Below are positions 26,321-47,785 of a stretch of DNA of 47,785 nt, one piece after another. Both the position numbers and the translations under genes were made by a program. Source of the DNA: a bacterium (lineage in GTDB: Bacteria > Patescibacteriota > Patescibacteriia > PEXW01); contig JAUYFT010000001.1 in NCBI GenBank assembly GCA_030689605.1, positions 1 through 47,785 of the forward strand. Direction: 5' to 3'. Each line of letters begins with the position of its first letter. The stretch's first letter is position 1. The notes under the pieces were generated by a model. It was not told the DNA's origin and made no database searches. It saw only the letters and a program-made list of their open reading frames with translations.

Positions 26321-26440
26321 GTCATCCTGAGTCCCGCATGTGCGGGACGACCTGCCCGCCGAACTCGCTATGGCGAGGCAGGCGGGAGGATCTTGCCCGG
26401 AAGGCAGCACAGCAAGATTCCTCGTTGAGCTCGGAATGAC
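26321..26440. repeat. GTCATCCTGAG...AGGATCT...GGAATGAC REP-like element with a nested CCTGCCCGCC hairpin
   Basis: 36-nt hairpin 26351-26386 interrupts CGA|AGGATCT. Confidence 0.8.
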
Positions 26441-26472: not shown

Positions 26473-27963
26473 ATGCCCCATACAATTGTCGACGTTTTGA
26501 AAGCCCAGCTCCAGTCATACACCGCCGCAGCCAGCACTGCTACGGTTGGCCACGTCATTGACGTCGGCGATGGTATCGCGCGCGTGGAAGGTTTAAGTAA
26601 CGTGAAATCTAGTGAAAAAGTTACTTTCGCGTCCGGTGCCACTGGCGTCGCGCTCAATCTGGAGGAAGACACGGTCGGCATCATGATCCTCAACGGCGCG
26701 ACAGACGTGACCGAAGGTGAAGAAGTCCGCGGTACTGGCCAGGTCATGTCCGTGCCTGTGGGCGATGCGCTCATTGGCCGCGTGGTGAACCCGCTGGGCG
26801 AACCAATTGATGGCAAAGGTGCAATCAAAGCCACCGACATTTTTCCTGTAGAGCGCGTGGCGCCTGGGGTCATTACCCGCGAGTCGGTGAAGCAACCCGT
26901 GCAGACGGGTATCAAGGCAATCGACGCACTCATCCCCATCGGTCGCGGCCAGCGCGAGCTCATCATCGGCGACCGTCAGACCGGCAAGACCGCCATTGCC
27001 ATTGATACGATTATCAACCAGAAAAATAGCGGCGTCATCTGCATCTACGTGGCCATTGGTCAGAAGGCGAGTAAGATCGCGCGCATTGTCGCCGAGCTGG
27101 AGAAGCATGGCGCCATGAATCACACTATCATAGTCCTGGCGAGCGCTGCCGACCCTGCTGCGCTCTCGTTCCTCGCGCCGTACGCCGGCTGTGCCATGGG
27201 CGAGTACTTCATGAGTAAGGGCAAGGACAGCCTCGTGGTGTATGACGACCTCTCTAAGCACGCCTGGGCCTACCGCCAAGTCTCGCTGCTGCTCCGCCGC
27301 CCCCCCGGCCGCGAAGCCTACCCCGGTGACATTTTCTACCTCCACTCTCGGCTATTGGAGCGCGCAGCCAAGCTCAACCAGGACAACGGTGGCGGTTCAC
27401 TCACAGCCTTGCCAATCATCGAGACGCAGGCTGGCGACATGAGTGCGTACATTCCCACCAACGTCATCTCCATCACTGATGGCCAGATTATTCTGGAATC
27501 AGACTTGTTCTACCAGGGTCAGCGCCCGGCGTTGAACGTTGGCCTCTCGGTTTCCCGCGTGGGTTCCAGTGCCCAGCGCAAAGCCATGAAGAAAGTGGCG
27601 GGTAAGCTCCGCTTGGACATGGCCCAGTACCGTGAGCTCGCCGCGTTCGCGCAGTTCGGCTCTGACCTGGACGCCGCCACCAAGCAGCAGCTAGAGCGCG
27701 GCAAGCGCACGGCCGAGTTGCTGAAGCAGGGGATTGGTCAGCCCATGCCTATGCCCGAGCAAGTGGCGGTGCTCTACGCAGTCACGCAGGGCTACCTGGA
27801 TGATGTGGAAGTCGAGAACGTCCAAAACTGGGAGAAGAATTTCCTCAAGAGCCTCCGCACGGGTGCCAGCGATTGGATTAAGGCAATTGACGACAAAGGC
27901 GAGCTCACGCCTGAACTGGGAGAGCAGCTGAAGACCGCGCTCACCACTTTCAAGAAAAGCTAA
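26473..27963 (+). CDS. atpA: ATP synthase F1 subunit alpha
   Basis: [31 protein letters not shown]. Confidence 0.98.
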
Positions 27964-28931: not shown

Positions 28932-29438
28932 ATGAACCCCTACCACAATCCACCACACCTGTACCTTGATCAATCACTATACTTTGTAAGTGCGAGAACA
29001 TTCGAAGCCCAGCTGTACCTTAAAGATGGTACACGTAAACAATTGTTCGTTAAAAAGTTAAATGATTTGCTGCAAGAGTATCAGTATAAACTTTATGCCT
29101 GGGTTGTGCTTGATAATCATTACCACCTTATCTTTGAGACGAACCAGGGTGCCAAGTTGCCGAAGTTCATGCAAGCATTGCACGGCGGCACCTCTCGCGC
29201 ATTGAACCTTATGGATGGTATCGAAGGCCGGAAGGTATGGTTCAACTACTGGGATCGTTGTTTACGGGATGACGTGGATTTCAATACTCATTGCGATTAC
29301 ATTCATTATAATCCCGTAAAGCATGGTTTTGCAGAACATCCCGAAGATTACCCATTCTCAAGCTATAAAGATTTCTTAAAAAGAAAATATTATGAAATAG
29401 GTTGGGGGTACGCGGAACAAAGAATATTGAAAAATTGA
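28932..29438 (+). mobile_element. REP-associated tyrosine transposase (RAYT, Y1 HUH superfamily)
   Basis: YAWVVLDNHYHLI HUH motif, YWDRCLRD, YIHYNPVKHG catalytic Tyr, YPFSSY; flanked by GTAG REPs. Confidence 0.92.
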
Positions 29439-38489: not shown

Positions 38490-41027
38490 ATGCTGCAGCT
38501 CATATACGCGGCTCAGGCGCAAGCTGGAAATCTCGAAAACGACTATGTGACAGTTTTTCCCTGGGCGCCACTAATCATTGCGGTTGGGGTCGTCCTTGCT
38601 ATCGTGGTTGTTTTCTTGCTCGTCCGCAGACGGCGGGCAAAACCATCTACCATAAAACTCGTGTGTTTAATGGTAACCTTGCCAAAAGAGCAGCAGGAGG
38701 AAGACTCGGGCAAAGGCTCGTCGCGCATCCAGCAGATGCAGGAGCAGATTAGCGTGGGGGAGTCATTCTTATCGTTCCTGGGCAACATGCGGGCGCAGCG
38801 CTGGTACCACACACTCGGCCGCGGGCGCAACGACCATTTCAGCTTAGAAATCGTCGCTGACCGTGAGCTTATTACCTTCTACGTCGTGGTACCGGAGCCG
38901 ATGAAGGAGTTCATGGAGCAGCAGATTCAAGCCCAGTACGCCGACGCCGAAATTCTTGTCACGCCCGAGTACAACCCTTTTCGCCCGACCTCGCACGTCG
39001 CGGCAGCCGCCTTGAGTTTACGCCAACGGTCGCTCTTCCCAATTCTCTCGTACCGACGCATGGATGTGGACCCGCTCAGTGGCTTGACCAATGCATTGTC
39101 GAAGCTAAGTGCTGATGAGTCTGCCGTTATCCAGTACGTTTGTCGGTCTTCGCACCCTCGCTGGCACACGCGGGCAGCAGCAGCGATTCGGAATTTACGT
39201 GCCGGAGGCAAAGCGAACCCCTCTATGGTTGGCAAGATTATTAGCGAACTTTGGAGCATGTTTTTCAGTACCAAAAAAAGCTCGCAGCAAGAGGAAATGC
39301 CAAAGCCCGTCAGCCCTGTGCAAGAGGAGCTTATTCAAAGGTTGCAAGAGAAGAACACTAAGCCCGCGCTCGATGTGAACATCCGCATCGTCGTGAGTAG
39401 CGCCACGCAGCAATTAGCCGCCACGCGATTGCAGAATATTATGTCTGCCTTTGGCCAGTATGCGTCCCCCGAAACCGGAAATCGTTTTTGGAAGAATGCT
39501 TGGCACTCCAACGACACGATCATTCGGAATTTCATATACCGGATGTTCGACGGGAACCGTCTGACGTTGCGCCCTCGGTATGCCACGTTAAGTACCGAGG
39601 AGCTCGCCAGCCTCTGGCACCTGCCGTTGGCGACCACCGAAACCCCGAATATCCGTTGGGTCCTCTCCCGCAATGCACCGCCGCCGGTCAATTTGCCGAA
39701 AACCGGCGTGTTGCTCGGCACCAGCCACTACCGCGGGGAAGAGGCGAAGATTCGCGTGGCGCGGGAAGACCGCCGCCGCCATGTGTACGTTATTGGGAAG
39801 TCTGGCGTTGGCAAGTCGGTGCTTATGACGCAGATGGCCTTGCAGGATATTGCCAATGGTGACGGCGTCTGCGTCGTGGATCCGCACGGTGACCTCATTA
39901 TCGATATCATGGGTCGGATGCCTGCCCACCGTTTGAAGGACGTTATCCACTTCAACCCTTCGGACATGCAAGCACCGGTTGGCTTGAATATGTTAGATGC
40001 AGAGAACCCCGAAGATAAAGACTTCGCCGTGCAGGAGATGATTTCCATTTTCATGAAGCTCTTCCCGCCCGAGATGATTGGCCCAATGTTCGAGCACAAT
40101 ATGCGCAACGTGATGCTCACGCTCATGGCCGATCCGGAAAATCCAGGCACCATTGTCGAAATTCCCCGCATGTTTACTGACCCGGTGTTCCAGAAGTTGA
40201 AAGTTTCGAAAGTGACCGACCCCATTGTCCGGGCGTTTTGGGAAAAGGAAATGGCGAAAACCAGTGACTTCCACAAGTCCGAAATGCTGGGCTACCTCAT
40301 TAGCAAGGTCGGTCGGTTTGTGGAGAATACGATGATGCGCAACGTCATTGGCCAGTCCAAGAGCGGTTTTGACTTCCAGCGCATTATGAACGAAGGCAAG
40401 ATTCTCCTCGTCAACCTGTCGAAGGGGACTACAGGTGAAGTGAATGCCAACCTCCTAGGCCTCATCATTGTGTCGAAGCTACAAATGGCCGCTCTGCGCC
40501 GTGCGTCGTTGCCCCAAGAACAACGCAAAGACTTTTTTCTCTACATTGATGAGTTCCAGAACTTCATTACCGATTCTATTGCCACCATTCTTTCCGAAGC
40601 GCGGAAGTACCGCCTGAACCTAACCATCGCGCATCAGTATGTTGGCCAACTGGTGCAGGGCGCAGACACGAAGATTCGTGACGCCGTGTTTGGCAACGTC
40701 GGCACAGTCGTAGCTTTCCGCGTGGGTGTGGAAGATGCCGAGACCTTTGCCCAGACCTTTGCCCCGACGTTCAGCGCCTTCGATGTAACGAATGTGGAGA
40801 AGTACACGGCCATTGTGAAGCTCCTCATCGACAACACCATGTCGAAGCCATTCACCATGAAGACGTTGCCTTTGGTGCAGCCGACGCCAGGACTCGTCGA
40901 ACACTTGGTTCAGCTCTCACGCAAACAGTTTGGAGTCCCCCGCGAAACCGTAGAAAAAGAAATTCTCGAGCGTTCCCAGCTCGGTGCCGCAGCCCCGCCG
41001 CCTATGGTGGCGGAAAGGAAGGCGTAA
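38490..41027 (+). CDS. DUF87/TraD-VirD4-like (HerA-FtsK superfamily) membrane ATPase
   Basis: DRRRHVYVIGKSGVGKS Walker A, DPHGDL, LYIDEFQN Walker B, SEARKYRL. Confidence 0.9.
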   Translation: MLQLIYAAQAQAGNLENDYVTVFPWAPLIIAVGVVLAIVVVFLLVRRRRAKPSTIKLVCLMVTLPKEQQEEDSGKGSSRIQQMQEQISVGESFLSFLGNMRAQRWYHTLGRGRNDHFSLEIVADRELITFYVVVPEPMKEFMEQQIQAQYADAEILVTPEYNPFRPTSHVAAAALSLRQRSLFPILSYRRMDVDPLSGLTNALSKLSADESAVIQYVCRSSHPRWHTRAAAAIRNLRAGGKANPSMVGKIISELWSMFFSTKKSSQQEEMPKPVSPVQEELIQRLQEKNTKPALDVNIRIVVSSATQQLAATRLQNIMSAFGQYASPETGNRFWKNAWHSNDTIIRNFIYRMFDGNRLTLRPRYATLSTEELASLWHLPLATTETPNIRWVLSRNAPPPVNLPKTGVLLGTSHYRGEEAKIRVAREDRRRHVYVIGKSGVGKSVLMTQMALQDIANGDGVCVVDPHGDLIIDIMGRMPAHRLKDVIHFNPSDMQAPVGLNMLDAENPEDKDFAVQEMISIFMKLFPPEMIGPMFEHNMRNVMLTLMADPENPGTIVEIPRMFTDPVFQKLKVSKVTDPIVRAFWEKEMAKTSDFHKSEMLGYLISKVGRFVENTMMRNVIGQSKSGFDFQRIMNEGKILLVNLSKGTTGEVNANLLGLIIVSKLQMAALRRASLPQEQRKDFFLYIDEFQNFITDSIATILSEARKYRLNLTIAHQYVGQLVQGADTKIRDAVFGNVGTVVAFRVGVEDAETFAQTFAPTFSAFDVTNVEKYTAIVKLLIDNTMSKPFTMKTLPLVQPTPGLVEHLVQLSRKQFGVPRETVEKEILERSQLGAAAPPPMVAERKA

Positions 41028-44680: not shown

Positions 44681-45265
44681 ATGCCTACGATTTCCGTTGC
44701 CGATATCCAAGCACTCCGCGAACGCACTGGCGTGGGTATGCTCGATGCGAAAAATGCTCTCGAAGCAGCAAGTGGCGACATTGATGCTGCGGTGACTACC
44801 CTTCGGAAATCTGGACAGAAGGTTGCGGAGAAGAAAGCTGCCCGGGTGACGCGGGAAGGCGTGGTGGGGGTGTACGAGCATAGCAACAAGAAGCTTGTGG
44901 CCGTAGTTGCCGTGGCGTGTGAGACAGATTTTGTTGCCCGGACAGAGGATTTTCAAACCTTGGCGCATGAGCTGGCGATGCACGTCGCGGCAGCCGCACC
45001 GACATACCTTACGGCTGCGGATATCCCCGCTGATGTCCTGGCCACGGAAGAGGATATTGCGCGCAGCCAAGCTAAGGGCAAGCCGGAGAAGATCCTCGCG
45101 TCTATCATTCAGGGGAAATTGAAGAAGTACGCCGAGGAGCACTGCTTGATGGAGCAAAAGTTCTTCAAGGATGATACAAAGACGGTCAGCGGTGTTGTTC
45201 AAGAAGCCATGCAGAAGCTCGGCGAGAACATCCAGGTTAAGGAATTCGTTCGTTTAAGCGTGTAG
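44681..45265 (+). CDS. tsf: Elongation factor Ts (short form)
   Basis: LRERTGVGMLDAK, CETDFVAR, LGENIQV. Confidence 0.96.
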   Translation: MPTISVADIQALRERTGVGMLDAKNALEAASGDIDAAVTTLRKSGQKVAEKKAARVTREGVVGVYEHSNKKLVAVVAVACETDFVARTEDFQTLAHELAMHVAAAAPTYLTAADIPADVLATEEDIARSQAKGKPEKILASIIQGKLKKYAEEHCLMEQKFFKDDTKTVSGVVQEAMQKLGENIQVKEFVRLSV

Positions 45266-45268
45266 CCC

Positions 45269-46159
45269 ATGCTCACCGATTGGATATTCCTAGGAGTATT
45301 TGGTGCCTGCGTGGTTACCTGCGCGGTGGTAGTGTGGCGGAAGTTGCCGCAGCTGGCGAGTATCCGTACGGACGCTATCCCCAAGCACCAACAACAAGCT
45401 CGAAAGCAGCAGATCTTGGATAAGCGCCTTCAGCAGAAGCTCGGGAATGCCGAAGCGGCCATTGTGAGAACGCTGACCAAGGGCTTTCAAGGAATGTGGA
45501 GCGGACTTCAGGTGCTGCTTCGCCGTTTGCGTGAACTTGAACGTGAGTACCGGCGCAAAGTAGTCACCCAGCAATCCATAGAGAATCCCGAAGTGCTGCG
45601 TTCTCGCCTCGCGACCGGGCTCGCCGACGCGCAGACGGCCATGGCGGCTGAAGACTTTCCTCGAGCCGAACAGCTCTTTGTAGATATCGTTGCCCTCGAT
45701 CCGAAGAACGTCGAAGCGTATATTGGGCTTGCGGATGTGGCCATGGCGAAAAAGGATTATACGAATGCCCGTGAGGCACTCCAGTTCGTGCTCAAGCTCC
45801 AGCAGGGGAATGATTCGGTTTATACTCGGCTCGGCCGCATTGCGACTGATGAAGGGAAATTCTCCGAAGCCGAAGCAGACTATCTTAAGTCTGTTAGCTT
45901 GAATGCGTCGACCGCTACCGCACAGTTTGAACTGGCAAATATTGAAGTGAAGCTTGGCAATGTAGAGAAAGCCCAAACTGCCTTTCAAGAGGCGGTTAAG
46001 CTTGAACCGGCAAACCCAAAGTACCTGGATGCATTGCTCGCCTTCGCTATCCAGCATACTCGTAAGGACATCGCCCGTGAAACGCTAGCACGGCTCCGCG
46101 AGGCAAATCCAGAGAATCAGAAATTACCCGAACTTGCAGAAGCCGTGAAGAAGTTGTAG
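45269..46159 (+). CDS. Membrane-anchored TPR protein
   Basis: N-terminal TM; TPR motifs LDPKNVEAY, LEPANPKY. Confidence 0.85.
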   Translation: MLTDWIFLGVFGACVVTCAVVVWRKLPQLASIRTDAIPKHQQQARKQQILDKRLQQKLGNAEAAIVRTLTKGFQGMWSGLQVLLRRLRELEREYRRKVVTQQSIENPEVLRSRLATGLADAQTAMAAEDFPRAEQLFVDIVALDPKNVEAYIGLADVAMAKKDYTNAREALQFVLKLQQGNDSVYTRLGRIATDEGKFSEAEADYLKSVSLNASTATAQFELANIEVKLGNVEKAQTAFQEAVKLEPANPKYLDALLAFAIQHTRKDIARETLARLREANPENQKLPELAEAVKKL

Positions 46160-46291: not shown

Positions 46292-46367
46292 GCCGATGTA
46301 GCTCAGCTGGTAGAGCAACTCCATGGTAAGGAGTAGGTCGCCGGTTCAATTCCGGCCATCGGCTCCA
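46292..46367 (+). tRNA. tRNA-Thr(GGT)
   Basis: GCCGATG/CATCGGC acceptor, ACTCC-ATGGTAA-GGAGT anticodon arm, TTCAATT T-loop, CCA. Confidence 0.95.
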
Positions 46368-46546: not shown

Positions 46547-46842
46547 TCCGGAGTAGCTCAGTGGTAGAGTCCCGATCTGTGAAGCAGATCGAGGATGCAC
46601 GATAGCCCGATGGGCTATCGGCACAACGCTTTTGTCCCGCTCGTTTGCTGCTATCATGAAGGCAGACGCGGGATCCTCGTAGTTCTTCAAAATCTTGCCG
46701 GAGTAGCTCAGCTGGTAGAGCAACGCTTTGGTAAAGCGAAGGTCGGGGGTTCGAGTCCTCTCTCCGGCTCCATCGGCAAGATTTTGTAAGAACTTCGGGA
46801 TAAAGCGAAGGTCGTCCCGCCACGGCGGGACGGGTGGCTCCA
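46547..46842 (+). pseudogene. Outer, fragmented tRNA-Thr(TGT)
   Basis: Pieces 46547-46569, 46624-46634, 46801-46814 and 46832-46842 separated by hairpin inserts; T-loop and part of the 3' acceptor strand deleted. Confidence 0.8.
46697..46772 (+). tRNA. tRNA-Thr(GGT), nested inside the Thr(TGT) remnant
   Basis: GCCGGAG/CTCCGGC acceptor, loop TTGGTAA, TTCGAGT T-loop, CCA. Confidence 0.93.
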
Positions 46843-46870
46843 CTCATTATTCCTCTCTAATACCTATTGT

Positions 46871-47026
46871 ATGTCCCAAGACAACCTGATCCACCTGGAG
46901 TGCACGGTTTGCAAGCATGTGAACTACCATTCGAAGAAGAATAAGAAGACGCTTAAAGGTCGATTAGCATTGAAGAAACACTGCACCTGGTGTGGCAAGC
47001 ACACCTTGCACAAGGAAACGAAGTAG
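46871..47026 (+). CDS. rpmG: 50S ribosomal protein L33 (zinc-binding form), not in the ORF track
   Basis: [51 protein letters not shown]. Confidence 0.95.
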
Positions 47027-47038
47027 TTTTCCACGCCT

Positions 47039-47290
47039 GGGGGAATAATTCATCGGTAGAACGACGGTCTCCCCGCCTGCCGGAGTACAGGGATAACATT
47101 AAGTCGTTAGTTGATGGGGGCGTAGTTCAACAGTAGAACTTCGGTCTCCAAAACCGGTAACGAGGGTGCGACACCTTCCGCCCCCGCCAACTAGCGACAA
47201 TAATGCTGTACAAATTGAAGGAAAATATTTACTTCGTACGGCGGGCAGTCAAAACCGTAGAGGAGGGTTCGATTCCTTCTGCCCTCGCCA
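47039..47290 (+). pseudogene. Outer tRNA-Trp(CCA) split at the anticodon by a 178-nt insert
   Basis: 5' half 47039-47072 plus 3' half 47251-47290 rejoin to ACGGT-CTCCAAA-ACCGT with GAGGG-TTCGATT-CCTTC and CCA; one acceptor and one D-stem mismatch. Confidence 0.85.
47116..47189 (+). tRNA. tRNA-Trp(CCA), nested inside the outer tRNA-Trp
   Basis: GGGGGCG/CGCCCCC acceptor, TCGGT-CTCCAAA-ACCGG, T-loop TGCGACA, CCA end. Confidence 0.9.
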
Positions 47291-47558
47291 GTACTGCAGG
47301 TGCCTGGTAGGGGCGCATGCAGGATCATGTGGAAAATGGAATCGAACGGGTGCGAGCGAGCGTAGCACCCCGGCCCGAAGGGCGATTCCTTCTTCCCCCG
47401 CCAGCTCTTTTCCCGAAATTTCATTTGGGGGATTTCCCGAAAAAGCTTTAGATTTTTCGTACTCCGTGTATGCGGAGTGTGCCGCATTGAGAGAGAGGAT
47501 TGCCTCCGCCATCTCGCTACGCTTGAGCGGACAGGCTTGCCTAAAGAAAATAAGTACG

Positions 47559-47606
47559 CTTGCCCGTCCGTAGTCCACCCCGGGTGGACGTAGGCGGGCG
47601 GGCAAG
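47559..47606. repeat. REP-like GC-rich hairpin
   Basis: CTTGCCCGTCCG..GTCCACCC/GGGTGGAC..CGGGCGGGCAAG. Confidence 0.7.
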
Positions 47607-47646
47607 GAACTCCCAAATCATTGACTTATTAGTGAAAAATTTATAT

Positions 47647-47785
47647 AAGACCCACTGCCCAAACCCCATTCCGCCAGACACCTCAAAGCGGGTGCTTGCT
47701 TGATTTACGCGTGCCGCAGATTGTAGAGACCTACCACCGTCTTGAAGATATCATTGTAATCGGAGAGGGTGCTCCTGAATCGGTG
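47647..47785 (-). mobile_element. Probable end of an IS5/ISL2-like (DDE_Tnp_4) element with partial transposase C-terminus (47705-47785)
   Basis: Minus frame HRFRSTLSDYNDIFKTVVGLYNLRHA*; TA-AGACCCACTGCCCAAA could be the terminal IR. Confidence 0.45.

Follow-up and report, generated by a model that had tools for sequence, protein, structure and literature searches.

Transfer RNA (tRNA) genes are landing sites for large integrative elements, which carry the displaced part of the tRNA gene with them and leave tRNA fragments behind as direct repeats, following known sublocation rules; in a few bacteria tRNA genes also hold group I introns. Here we describe a locus in the patescibacterial contig JAUYFT010000001.1 of assembly GCA_030689605.1 (positions 1 to 47,785, the whole 47,785-nt stretch analysed, hereafter ‘the window’), where an intact gene for tRNA-Trp lies within a hairpin-bounded cassette that splits the anticodon loop of another tRNA-Trp gene. 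Quite probably the cassette is a self-compensating replacement unit acting at the DNA level, and not a spliced intron: the resident gene would be dead and the cargo would now serve as tRNA-Trp.

REP and REPIN palindromes occur together with REP-associated tyrosine transposases (RAYTs), and Rickettsia palindromic elements (RPEs) are present within RNA genes and, in frame, within protein-coding genes; we know of no REP, REPIN or RPE element that carries a gene. Some homing endonuclease genes reportedly duplicate part of their target, such as the free-standing SegB gene in the tRNA gene region of phage T4, and a GIY-YIG open reading frame (ORF) with a duplicated atp6 end is said to occur in Allomyces mitochondria.

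Fragments of tRNA genes in prokaryotes are the subject of PMC9897764. Group I introns that interrupt bacterial tRNA genes in the anticodon loop are described in bioRxiv 10.1101/2020.01.27.920355; PMC10714607 (citing Fujishima et al. 2009, 2010) treats split tRNAs and archaeal bulge-helix-bulge tRNA introns, some of them able to transpose from one tRNA to another. Searches of the open literature (supplements and subscription journals excluded) brought up no account of a tRNA gene lying within the anticodon loop of a homologous one; a prior report may exist.

The cassette combines features of integrative elements, homing endonuclease genes and REP/RPE palindromes. Like an integrative element, it has a tRNA gene as target, supplies the tRNA sequence that is needed and leaves a relic; unlike such elements, it is 113–183 nt long, has no integrase, carries a whole tRNA nested in the anticodon loop, leaves both halves of the host gene as a relic and is bounded by inverted repeats. 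Having no ORF in its 178 nt and inverted arms at its ends, the insert of the window does not qualify as an integrase element (the genome itself was not searched for integrases). With homing endonuclease genes it shares the self-compensating logic, and GIY-YIG ORFs are present at tRNA relics in the same genomes; the differences are that the cassette of the window has no ORF, GIY-YIG or other, that its inverted arms are conserved and that an entire gene is duplicated.

A tRNA-Trp gene nested within a tRNA-Trp gene

The window is contig C28 of G000, a 644-kb metagenome-type assembly of 33 contigs with completeness of 83%. Labels of the form G### denote genomes (G000 being that of the window), L### loci and C## contigs of G000. 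Genomes of the relatives range in size from 0.6 to 1.6 Mb, in keeping with a CPR-type bacterium; G001, G002 and G005 are the relatives from the same genus used for comparison, and G009 and G007 are 100% and 98% complete.

The original prediction that an intact tRNA-Trp lies within a split tRNA-Trp was borne out by ARAGORN, Rfam and control joins (coordinates of features are given in Table 1). Upon joining of the outer halves in a script (47039-47072 and 47251-47290), ARAGORN called a 74-nt tRNA-Trp(CCA). Control joins with identical spacing (34 nt, a gap of 178 nt, 40 nt), made every 10 nt through the whole assembly, produced a single ARAGORN call in 63,577, and this sole call falls at the nested Trp locus itself (grid position 47041). 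The outer gene had been expected to be rebuildable with two stem mismatches; the cloverleaf audit identified these as A6.G67 and A10.C25, along with two G.U pairs, D-loop ATCGGTA and T-loop TTCGATT. The audit used a fixed 74-nt template; the 75-nt sequences of G003, G004, G006 and G008 and the joined outer copy of G011 were left out of it.

The insertion boundary slides by one base, as cutting out 47072-47249 or 47073-47250 leaves an identical product. When cut in the first way, the insert is bounded exactly by 10-nt inverted arms and the insertion site is located between C34 and C35 (CTC^CAAA). The arms are CCCGCCTGCC at the start and GGCGGGCAGT at the end, the right arm of the relatives being GGCGGGCAGG; the arm stem has 10 bp, including one C.A pair and one T.G pair, and in the window a final T in the right arm breaks the last pair as well. 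The insert termini match the reverse complement of a short hairpin elsewhere in the window (Table 1), just as had been reported. Inwards from the arms come the sub-arms GGAGTAC and GTAC, and then a 9-bp stem of leader TCGTTAGTT and trailer AACTAGCGA clasping the inner tRNA; compensatory changes in this stem were read from the alignment in G011. The nested stems proposed earlier were recovered by folding: the 252-nt stretch folds with −99.1 kcal/mol (z = −5.2; 0 of 200 shuffles as good), and the folded insert is a single extended hairpin tipped by the inner cloverleaf. G007 and G011 have homologous inserts, with lengths of 172 and 183 nt, respectively. In the alignment used for the consensus fold the G007 row has no 3′ part; this alignment served only the consensus fold and three compensatory pairs.

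The upstream neighbour is an ORF which we take to be rpmG, a name given from its sequence and not by a family search. ORFs resembling rpmG are found upstream of tRNA-Trp in relatives as well, making rpmG–tRNA-Trp a conserved locus. ARAGORN found nothing in a 501-nt excerpt containing the inner tRNA-Trp, yet calls that tRNA in the whole window.

A position 500 nt from the contig end, in a metagenome-type assembly broken into 33 contigs, is a reason to consider an artefact, i.e. a chimeric contig end made of two populations with different tRNA-Trp genes. Such an origin is scarcely credible given that the same nested layout, with homologous flanks, is present in the independent assemblies G007, G009 and G011, and that the layout with other cargo is present in G047, G059, G135, L102, L133 and L266.

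Table 1. Features of the nested tRNA-Trp locus and of related or neighbouring elements in the window
Feature	Position	Strand	Remarks
Presumed rpmG (ribosomal protein L33, 51 aa)	46871..47026	+	ORF; upstream neighbour of tRNA-Trp
Outer (resident, relic) tRNA-Trp, 5′ part	47039..47071	+	tRNA positions 1-34, end ...GGTCTC
Hairpin-bounded cassette, 178 nt	47072..47249 (equivalently 47073-47250)	+	Between C34 and C35
Left arm CCCGCCTGCC and sub-arm GGAGTAC	47072..47088	+	
Leader strand TCGTTAGTT of stem clasping inner tRNA	47104..47112	+	Pairs with 47189-47197
Inner tRNA-Trp(CCA), apparently live gene	47116..47189	+	ARAGORN, Rfam, cloverleaf audit
Trailer strand AACTAGCGA of clasping stem	47189..47197	+	
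Sub-arm GTAC and right arm GGCGGGCAGT	47236..47249	+	Right arm is GGCGGGCAGG in 6 of 9 loci
Outer tRNA-Trp, 3′ part	47250..47290	+	tRNA positions 35-76, CAAAACCGT...CGCCA; last 21 nt (47270-47290) are DR1
Short ‘empty’ hairpin, arms CCCGCCTGCC / GGCGGGCAGG	26351..26386	-	Intergenic, upstream of ORF starting at 26473
REP-associated tyrosine transposase (RAYT)	28932..29438	+	NF047646, 114.7 bits (cut-off 80)
Relic tRNA-Thr(TGT), four pieces	46548-46569, 46624-46635, 46802-46814, 46831-46842	+	Within 46548..46842
166-nt insert with intact tRNA-Thr	46636-46801; gene 46697-46772	+	
T-element spacer hairpin	47291..47337	+	
T-element core (E), conserved 52-nt three-way junction	47338..47389	+	5′ strand GGAATCGAAC, reverse complement of tRNA T-loop
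DR2, second tRNA-Trp 3′ end (CGATTCCTTCTTCCCCCGCCAG)	47383..47404	+	20 of 22 nt identical to DR1

State of the inner and outer genes

The inner tRNA-Trp scores 57.1 bits against the Rfam tRNA model (RF00005, cut-off 29). It has all four stems paired with 0 mismatches, the anticodon CCA, the discriminator G and an encoded CCA end. The canonical G18 G19 and T54 Psi55 C56 are missing: as described in the original prediction, the D-loop (AACAGTA) is without GG and the T-loop reads TGCGACA. Since the same unusual loops (D-loop AACAGTA, T-loop NGCRNCA) occur in plain tRNA-Trp genes of G312, G291, G164, G156, G112 and G173, these departures are a lineage trait and not decay. In G312 and G291 the plain gene of the inner type directly follows rpmG; in G173 rpmG is followed by a relic 5′ part and a GIY-YIG ORF, which precede the gene. 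Loss of GG in the D-loop (to AG) accompanies the change of TTC to NGC in the T-loop in the window, G007, G009, G011 and the six genomes just listed, and tRNA-Trp of G119 keeps both GG and TTC. The joint change looks like covariation of the G18-U55 tertiary contact.

Stem mismatches were absent from 10 of 10 plain or inner tRNA-Trp genes audited (74-nt sequences), and all inner copies tested exceed the Rfam tRNA cut-off (55.6–72.8 bits). A search with the tRNA-Trp of a plain relative found the inner copy as the sole full-length tRNA-Trp-like match in each of G000, G007, G009 and G011. The inner gene of the window shares 100% identity with the inner copy of G009 and 96% with that of G011 as well as that of G007; it is 95% (G164) or 93% (G119) identical to tRNA-Trp of another family. 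Identity of the joined outer copy to plain tRNA-Trp genes of the same genus is 85% for G002 and G005 and 84% for G001; the outer copy appears to be the tRNA-Trp type native to the family.

Between the inner and outer genes identity is 78%. The prediction that the inner gene is no recent local duplicate of the outer one thus stands, and the two are not nearest neighbours of each other: the outer is nearest to G002, G005 and G001, the inner to G009, G011 and G007. To call the inner gene a ‘divergent’ copy was misleading, as its loops are normal elsewhere, its stems have no mismatches and it is the only full tRNA-Trp in four genomes. Because its unusual loops are normal in other families, the inner gene seems, from sequence comparison, to be imported yet normal, not degenerate; it appears to be a live gene and the tRNA-Trp that the cell now uses.

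The outer copy presents another picture. The cloverleaf audit counted two stem mismatches in G000, three in G007 (plus a lost G19) and one in L102. Among G000, G007 and G011, identity is 95–96% for the inner gene, 74–83% for the outer halves, 69–80% for the left flank and 54–64% for the right flank; the outer halves thus change at about four to six times the rate of the inner gene. The joined outer copy of G011 is no longer called as a tRNA by ARAGORN. In G009 the right arm and the 3′ half are located 1,636 nt away, beyond a sodium:solute symporter ORF, and in L133 the right arm was not found within 2.2 kb. Outer copies of G047, G059 and L266 have extra hairpins in, or in place of, the T-arm, and further damage to the outer copy was detected in G011, G009, G047, G059, G135, L133 and L266. 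Defects beyond the insertion (mismatches, T-arm hairpins, a missing CCA or displacement of the 3′ half by 1.6 kb) are present in all nine outer copies having a right junction, and the joined outer copy is recognizable as a tRNA in four of eight loci. The outer copy appears to be decaying; with all nine of these copies further damaged, the implication of the original prediction that it is a spliced gene is unsupported.

Known kinds of tRNA introns fit the insert in part. Like group I introns of tRNA genes, it interrupts a bacterial tRNA gene in the anticodon loop and has a length of about 180 nt; unlike them, it does not match the group I model, its interior is a tRNA and not a ribozyme core, and the host gene is apparently decaying. 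A group I intron was rejected, with no RF00028 match at E up to 10 in 46850-47785 and none at the gathering score in 12 related loci; no Rfam intron family, group I or II, was found in the window locus or in the 12 related loci. Archaeal tRNA introns are similar in being hairpin-like inserts in tRNA loops, with the same insert in several genes or lineages; the locus differs from them in having a bacterial host, no bulge-helix-bulge at the junctions and neither EndA nor RtcB in five of five genomes. Pairing of the junctions by hand, with no program, gave the anticodon stem, a 3x4 (or 3x8) internal loop and the 10-bp arm stem. A bulge-helix-bulge intron was likewise rejected: the motif, two 3-nt bulges with a 4-bp helix between them, is absent on manual pairing, and searches found EndA (PF01974) in 0 of 5 and RtcB (PF01139) in 0 of 5 genomes, four of the five being at least 94% complete (in control searches, hits were obtained in 4 and 10 of 14 genomes, respectively).

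A tRNA intron of a new kind would have the arms as a splicing signal; the outer halves would be ligated and two tRNA-Trp species made, one of them released from the intron. In its favour, the arms are near-invariant at an exact anticodon-loop position in 11 loci, the long helix of the insert brings the outer halves together, half of the eight joined outer copies are recognizable as tRNA and the outer stems of L266 are largely intact; moreover, a tRNA-Thr(GGT) of G017 with a 194-nt insert shows that unexplained interruptions exist in the class. Weighed against this are the additional defects of all nine outer copies with a right junction, the four- to sixfold faster evolution of the outer halves, the lack of a group I or II signal and, on manual reading, of a bulge-helix-bulge, the absence of EndA and RtcB from the five genomes and the in-frame translation of hairpins of the same family in gyrB, pheT and gatB (see below). 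Altogether, a new intron is very improbable.

The tRNA-Thr(GGT) of G017 (L015, 1853-2122, minus strand) has a perfect cloverleaf interrupted at 36/37 by the 194 nt. Its insert has no inner tRNA and no Rfam hit, with only a weak tRNA hit of 19.3 bits; either the gene was broken recently or the insert is an intron of a kind not yet known. Two calls made by ARAGORN in intron mode in G000 were set aside as probably false: a tRNA-Pro with a 687-nt intron in C18 and a tRNA-Arg with a 449-nt intron in the window (40100-40634, minus strand), the latter in apparent coding sequence.

Recurrence of the cassette, its hairpin family and proposed movement

Ten further loci, belonging to at least six families, have the same arms around other tRNA-Trp genes at the same anticodon-loop position. 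The junction pattern was found in 11 of 401 genomes of the class (the reversed control pattern gave one match), and inspection confirmed nested tRNA-Trp in G047, G059, G135 and G211. Public-contig scans, which give lower bounds and not frequencies, contributed loci L102, L133 and L266 from among the matches listed. A 15-letter junction pattern yielded at least two nested tRNA-Trp loci among 120 matches listed from metagenomes, and a 17-letter pattern at least one (L266) among 119 matches listed from genome contigs (159 loci screened). The gene order in L266 is rpmG–nested Trp–secE–nusG, with gene names assigned by eye.

The left junction ...CTC^CCCGCCT(G/T/A)CC is common to eleven loci, with the left arm exact in 9 of 11; the right junction ...GGCGGGCAGG^CAAAAC is present in nine loci and exact in six. 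Insert length is in the range 113–183 nt in eight loci. Cargo and resident tRNAs differ widely among the nested loci, and every cargo tested is above the Rfam cut-off. In G059 the roles are swapped: the disrupted outer gene is of the AACAGTA-D-loop type (the inner type in the window) and the cargo is of the canonical type. The roles would thus be interchangeable, as expected for serial replacement. The outer-type gene is uninterrupted in G001, G002 and G005, and the eleven filled loci belong to different lineages.

Downstream of rpmG in G010 (L019) there is a pile-up of Trp remains. The outermost halves are of one type; between them lie two truncated 5′ parts together with a single live gene, which are of another type. 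Three of the relics have, at the same anticodon-loop position, a hairpin unlike that of the cassette, CTCCGGGCC...GGCCGGAGG.

Outside tRNA genes, the arms form a family of short hairpins. G000 has 19 copies with the exact pattern, the ‘empty’ hairpin in Table 1 being one of them, and the reversed control pattern has none; the arm 10-mers occur 30 and 47 times in G000. There are seven short copies in G135, three in G007 and no others in G059 and G047. Absence of other family hairpins from the last two genomes indicates that the arms belong to the cassette. The family consists of multi-copy short imperfect palindromes, as is characteristic of REP/REPIN-RAYT systems. Hairpins of 39 or 36 nt were found in frame in C13 (L309, L310) and C3 (L311) of G000, in gyrB, pheT (twice) and gatB (twice), and also in a 553-aa ORF. 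They read as 12–13-residue, LPARPSAQPWQAG-like peptides, and being in frame within gyrB, pheT and gatB they are plainly not removed there; in this respect they resemble Rickettsia palindromic elements. Deletion of all 146 candidate family hairpins from G000 revealed no interrupted tRNA besides Trp.

In common with REP and RPE elements, the arms belong to a set of short palindromes rich in GC, which lie between genes or in frame within them, and RAYT genes are present; the differences are that the hairpin loop holds an apparently functional tRNA, that the target is the homologous tRNA gene and that no RAYT is flanked by the family. Transposases of Y1/RAYT type were detected in four of five genomes, with three Y1 hits in G000 (its RAYT-type genes are located in the window and on C17 and C33), and all RAYT flanks have either a different hairpin (GGAGTAGAG...) or none. 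The RAYT gene of the window has GGAGTAGAG(A/G)CTTTAG... hairpins on both sides and makes a separate REP-RAYT unit. A link between the arms and this particular gene was rejected, its flanks carrying another hairpin family; as a class, RAYTs are a candidate for the enzyme moving hairpin elements.

Small GIY-YIG ORFs are located between a relic tRNA 5′ part and a live tRNA gene at tRNA-Trp of G003, G173 and G211 (PF01541, E 1.3e-11 in G173), and the same layout is present for Leu on contig C12 of G000. At C12, about 45199-45640 on the minus strand, a relic tRNA-Leu 5′ part with two hairpins is followed by a GIY-YIG-like ORF and a live tRNA-Leu(TAG); the tRNA-Trp counterparts are L006 (G003), L036 (G173) and L307 (G211). 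Such layouts suggest that nuclease-triggered homing into tRNA genes is under way in these genomes.

The nested layout could also have arisen by two unrelated local events, with no mobile cassette or transfer: a hairpin would have entered a duplicated tRNA-Trp gene, and a tRNA-Trp would later have entered the loop of the hairpin. The abundance of the family in G000 (19 short copies) agrees with this, as do hairpins nested in the loops of other hairpins in G000, relic tRNA-Trp genes of G010, G003, G173 and G211 that carry other hairpins alone near the same site, and the close relationship of inner and outer genes in L266 and in the tRNA-Thr of the window. Yet each of the 11 arm-bearing tRNA-Trp genes encloses a further tRNA-Trp, whole or broken, and no tRNA-Trp was seen with the arms alone; G059 and G047 are without other hairpins of the family; and the inner gene of the window is of the type of other families and identical to that of G009, with G001, G002 and G005 keeping the outer type uninterrupted. 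We regard independent local events as unlikely.

According to the replacement reading that we prefer, the native tRNA-Trp gene following rpmG would have been cut at the DNA level, between C34 and C35, by the 178-nt cassette, a long imperfect hairpin with a complete tRNA-Trp of the type of other families at its tip. The insert would stay in the RNA and, not being removed from it, would have caused the death of the resident gene, which now decays. A break in a single-copy essential gene would be tolerated only because the insert brings a substitute, and the need for this substitute would explain why Trp is found within Trp. The cassette would be a mobile unit passed between lineages; it may move as structured single-stranded DNA (ssDNA) handled by an enzyme of the Y1/RAYT type, or else through homing set off by a nuclease, for which the outer halves would act as homology arms.

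Several points weigh against this explanation. Assembly G000 is 83% complete, so a further tRNA-Trp gene could be unassembled. The outer halves, at 74–83% identity, are somewhat better kept than the right flank (54–64%), and the acceptor stem of the outer copy in L266 is still fully paired over 7 bp, differing from that of the inner one by two compensatory changes (by eye). The kept outer halves and near-invariant arms, which we attribute to mobility, could in principle reflect a signal at the RNA level, and it is from sequence that we infer non-splicing of the insert. The arms are linked to neither a transposase nor a nuclease; the RAYT gene of the window is flanked by another hairpin family, and the insert has no ORF. 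Finally, cargo tRNAs vary greatly and the arms do not, which is awkward for the idea of one element with one cargo.

Neighbouring elements and implications

About 300 nt upstream of the nested Trp locus lies a nested tRNA-Thr. Its insert splits the relic after position 36 (TTTTGT^...^AAAGCG), and the intact tRNA-Thr is likewise clasped by a leader/trailer stem. The relic has hairpins in the D-arm and T-arm regions, and its joined pieces no longer score as a tRNA. The same replacement logic seems to apply to tRNA-Thr. Both tRNA-Thr genes of the window (46292-46367 and 46697-46772) read GGT, and relatives have GGT and TGT at these places; the stems of the second gene match the TGT gene of relatives, with GGT as the anticodon. 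A tRNA-Thr(TGT) gene was not found in the 83%-complete assembly of G000.

Immediately downstream of the nested Trp locus there is another element, the T-element (47291-47415), composed of a spacer hairpin, a 52-nt core and a copy of the tRNA 3′ end through CCA, followed by GCTCGTTTCGCG. The TTCCCCC of DR2 pairs perfectly with GGGGGAA at the outer 5′ end and has the same sequence as the 3′ end in genes of the G002 type. The T-element is multi-copy, sometimes tandem, and is found after Gly, Glu, Arg, Gln, Leu and Trp genes, copying the 3′ end of each tRNA; in relatives of the window genome it was seen at loci L014, L037-L048, L051 and L053. It is present in 8 of 11 genomes of the family and in none of 29 other genomes searched. 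Covariation was detected at 4 of 18 pairs, and there is no Rfam match. With DR1 and DR2 as copies of the 3′ end, the T-element closely fits the pattern of integrative elements.

For annotation, these loci matter in that ARAGORN overlooked the live tRNA-Trp of G007 and, in intron mode, gave no call for the outer tRNA-Trp of the window. If the cassette is mobile, it explains how closely related genomes of the family come to have differing tRNA-Trp genes at the same locus, offers a route for horizontal exchange of an essential single-copy RNA gene and provides an instance, in nature, of an insertion that its host cannot shed. The invader would be about minimal in size, carrying only the substitute for the gene that it broke.

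A further step, which we put forward tentatively and with somewhat more doubt than confidence, is to regard the cassette as a mobile and selfish tRNA gene. Its arms would act as handles for an ssDNA (Y1/RAYT-like) or homing mechanism, it would enter whatever tRNA-Trp is resident at one exact point, between C34 and C35, and replacement would occur serially across lineages. Such a gene would destroy an essential gene and supply its own, and so could not be lost; an earlier invader would itself become a relic, G059 being an example. The cassette, the GIY-YIG cassettes and the T-element would jointly define a class of self-compensating parasites of tRNA genes that drive the turnover of these genes in small-genome bacteria.

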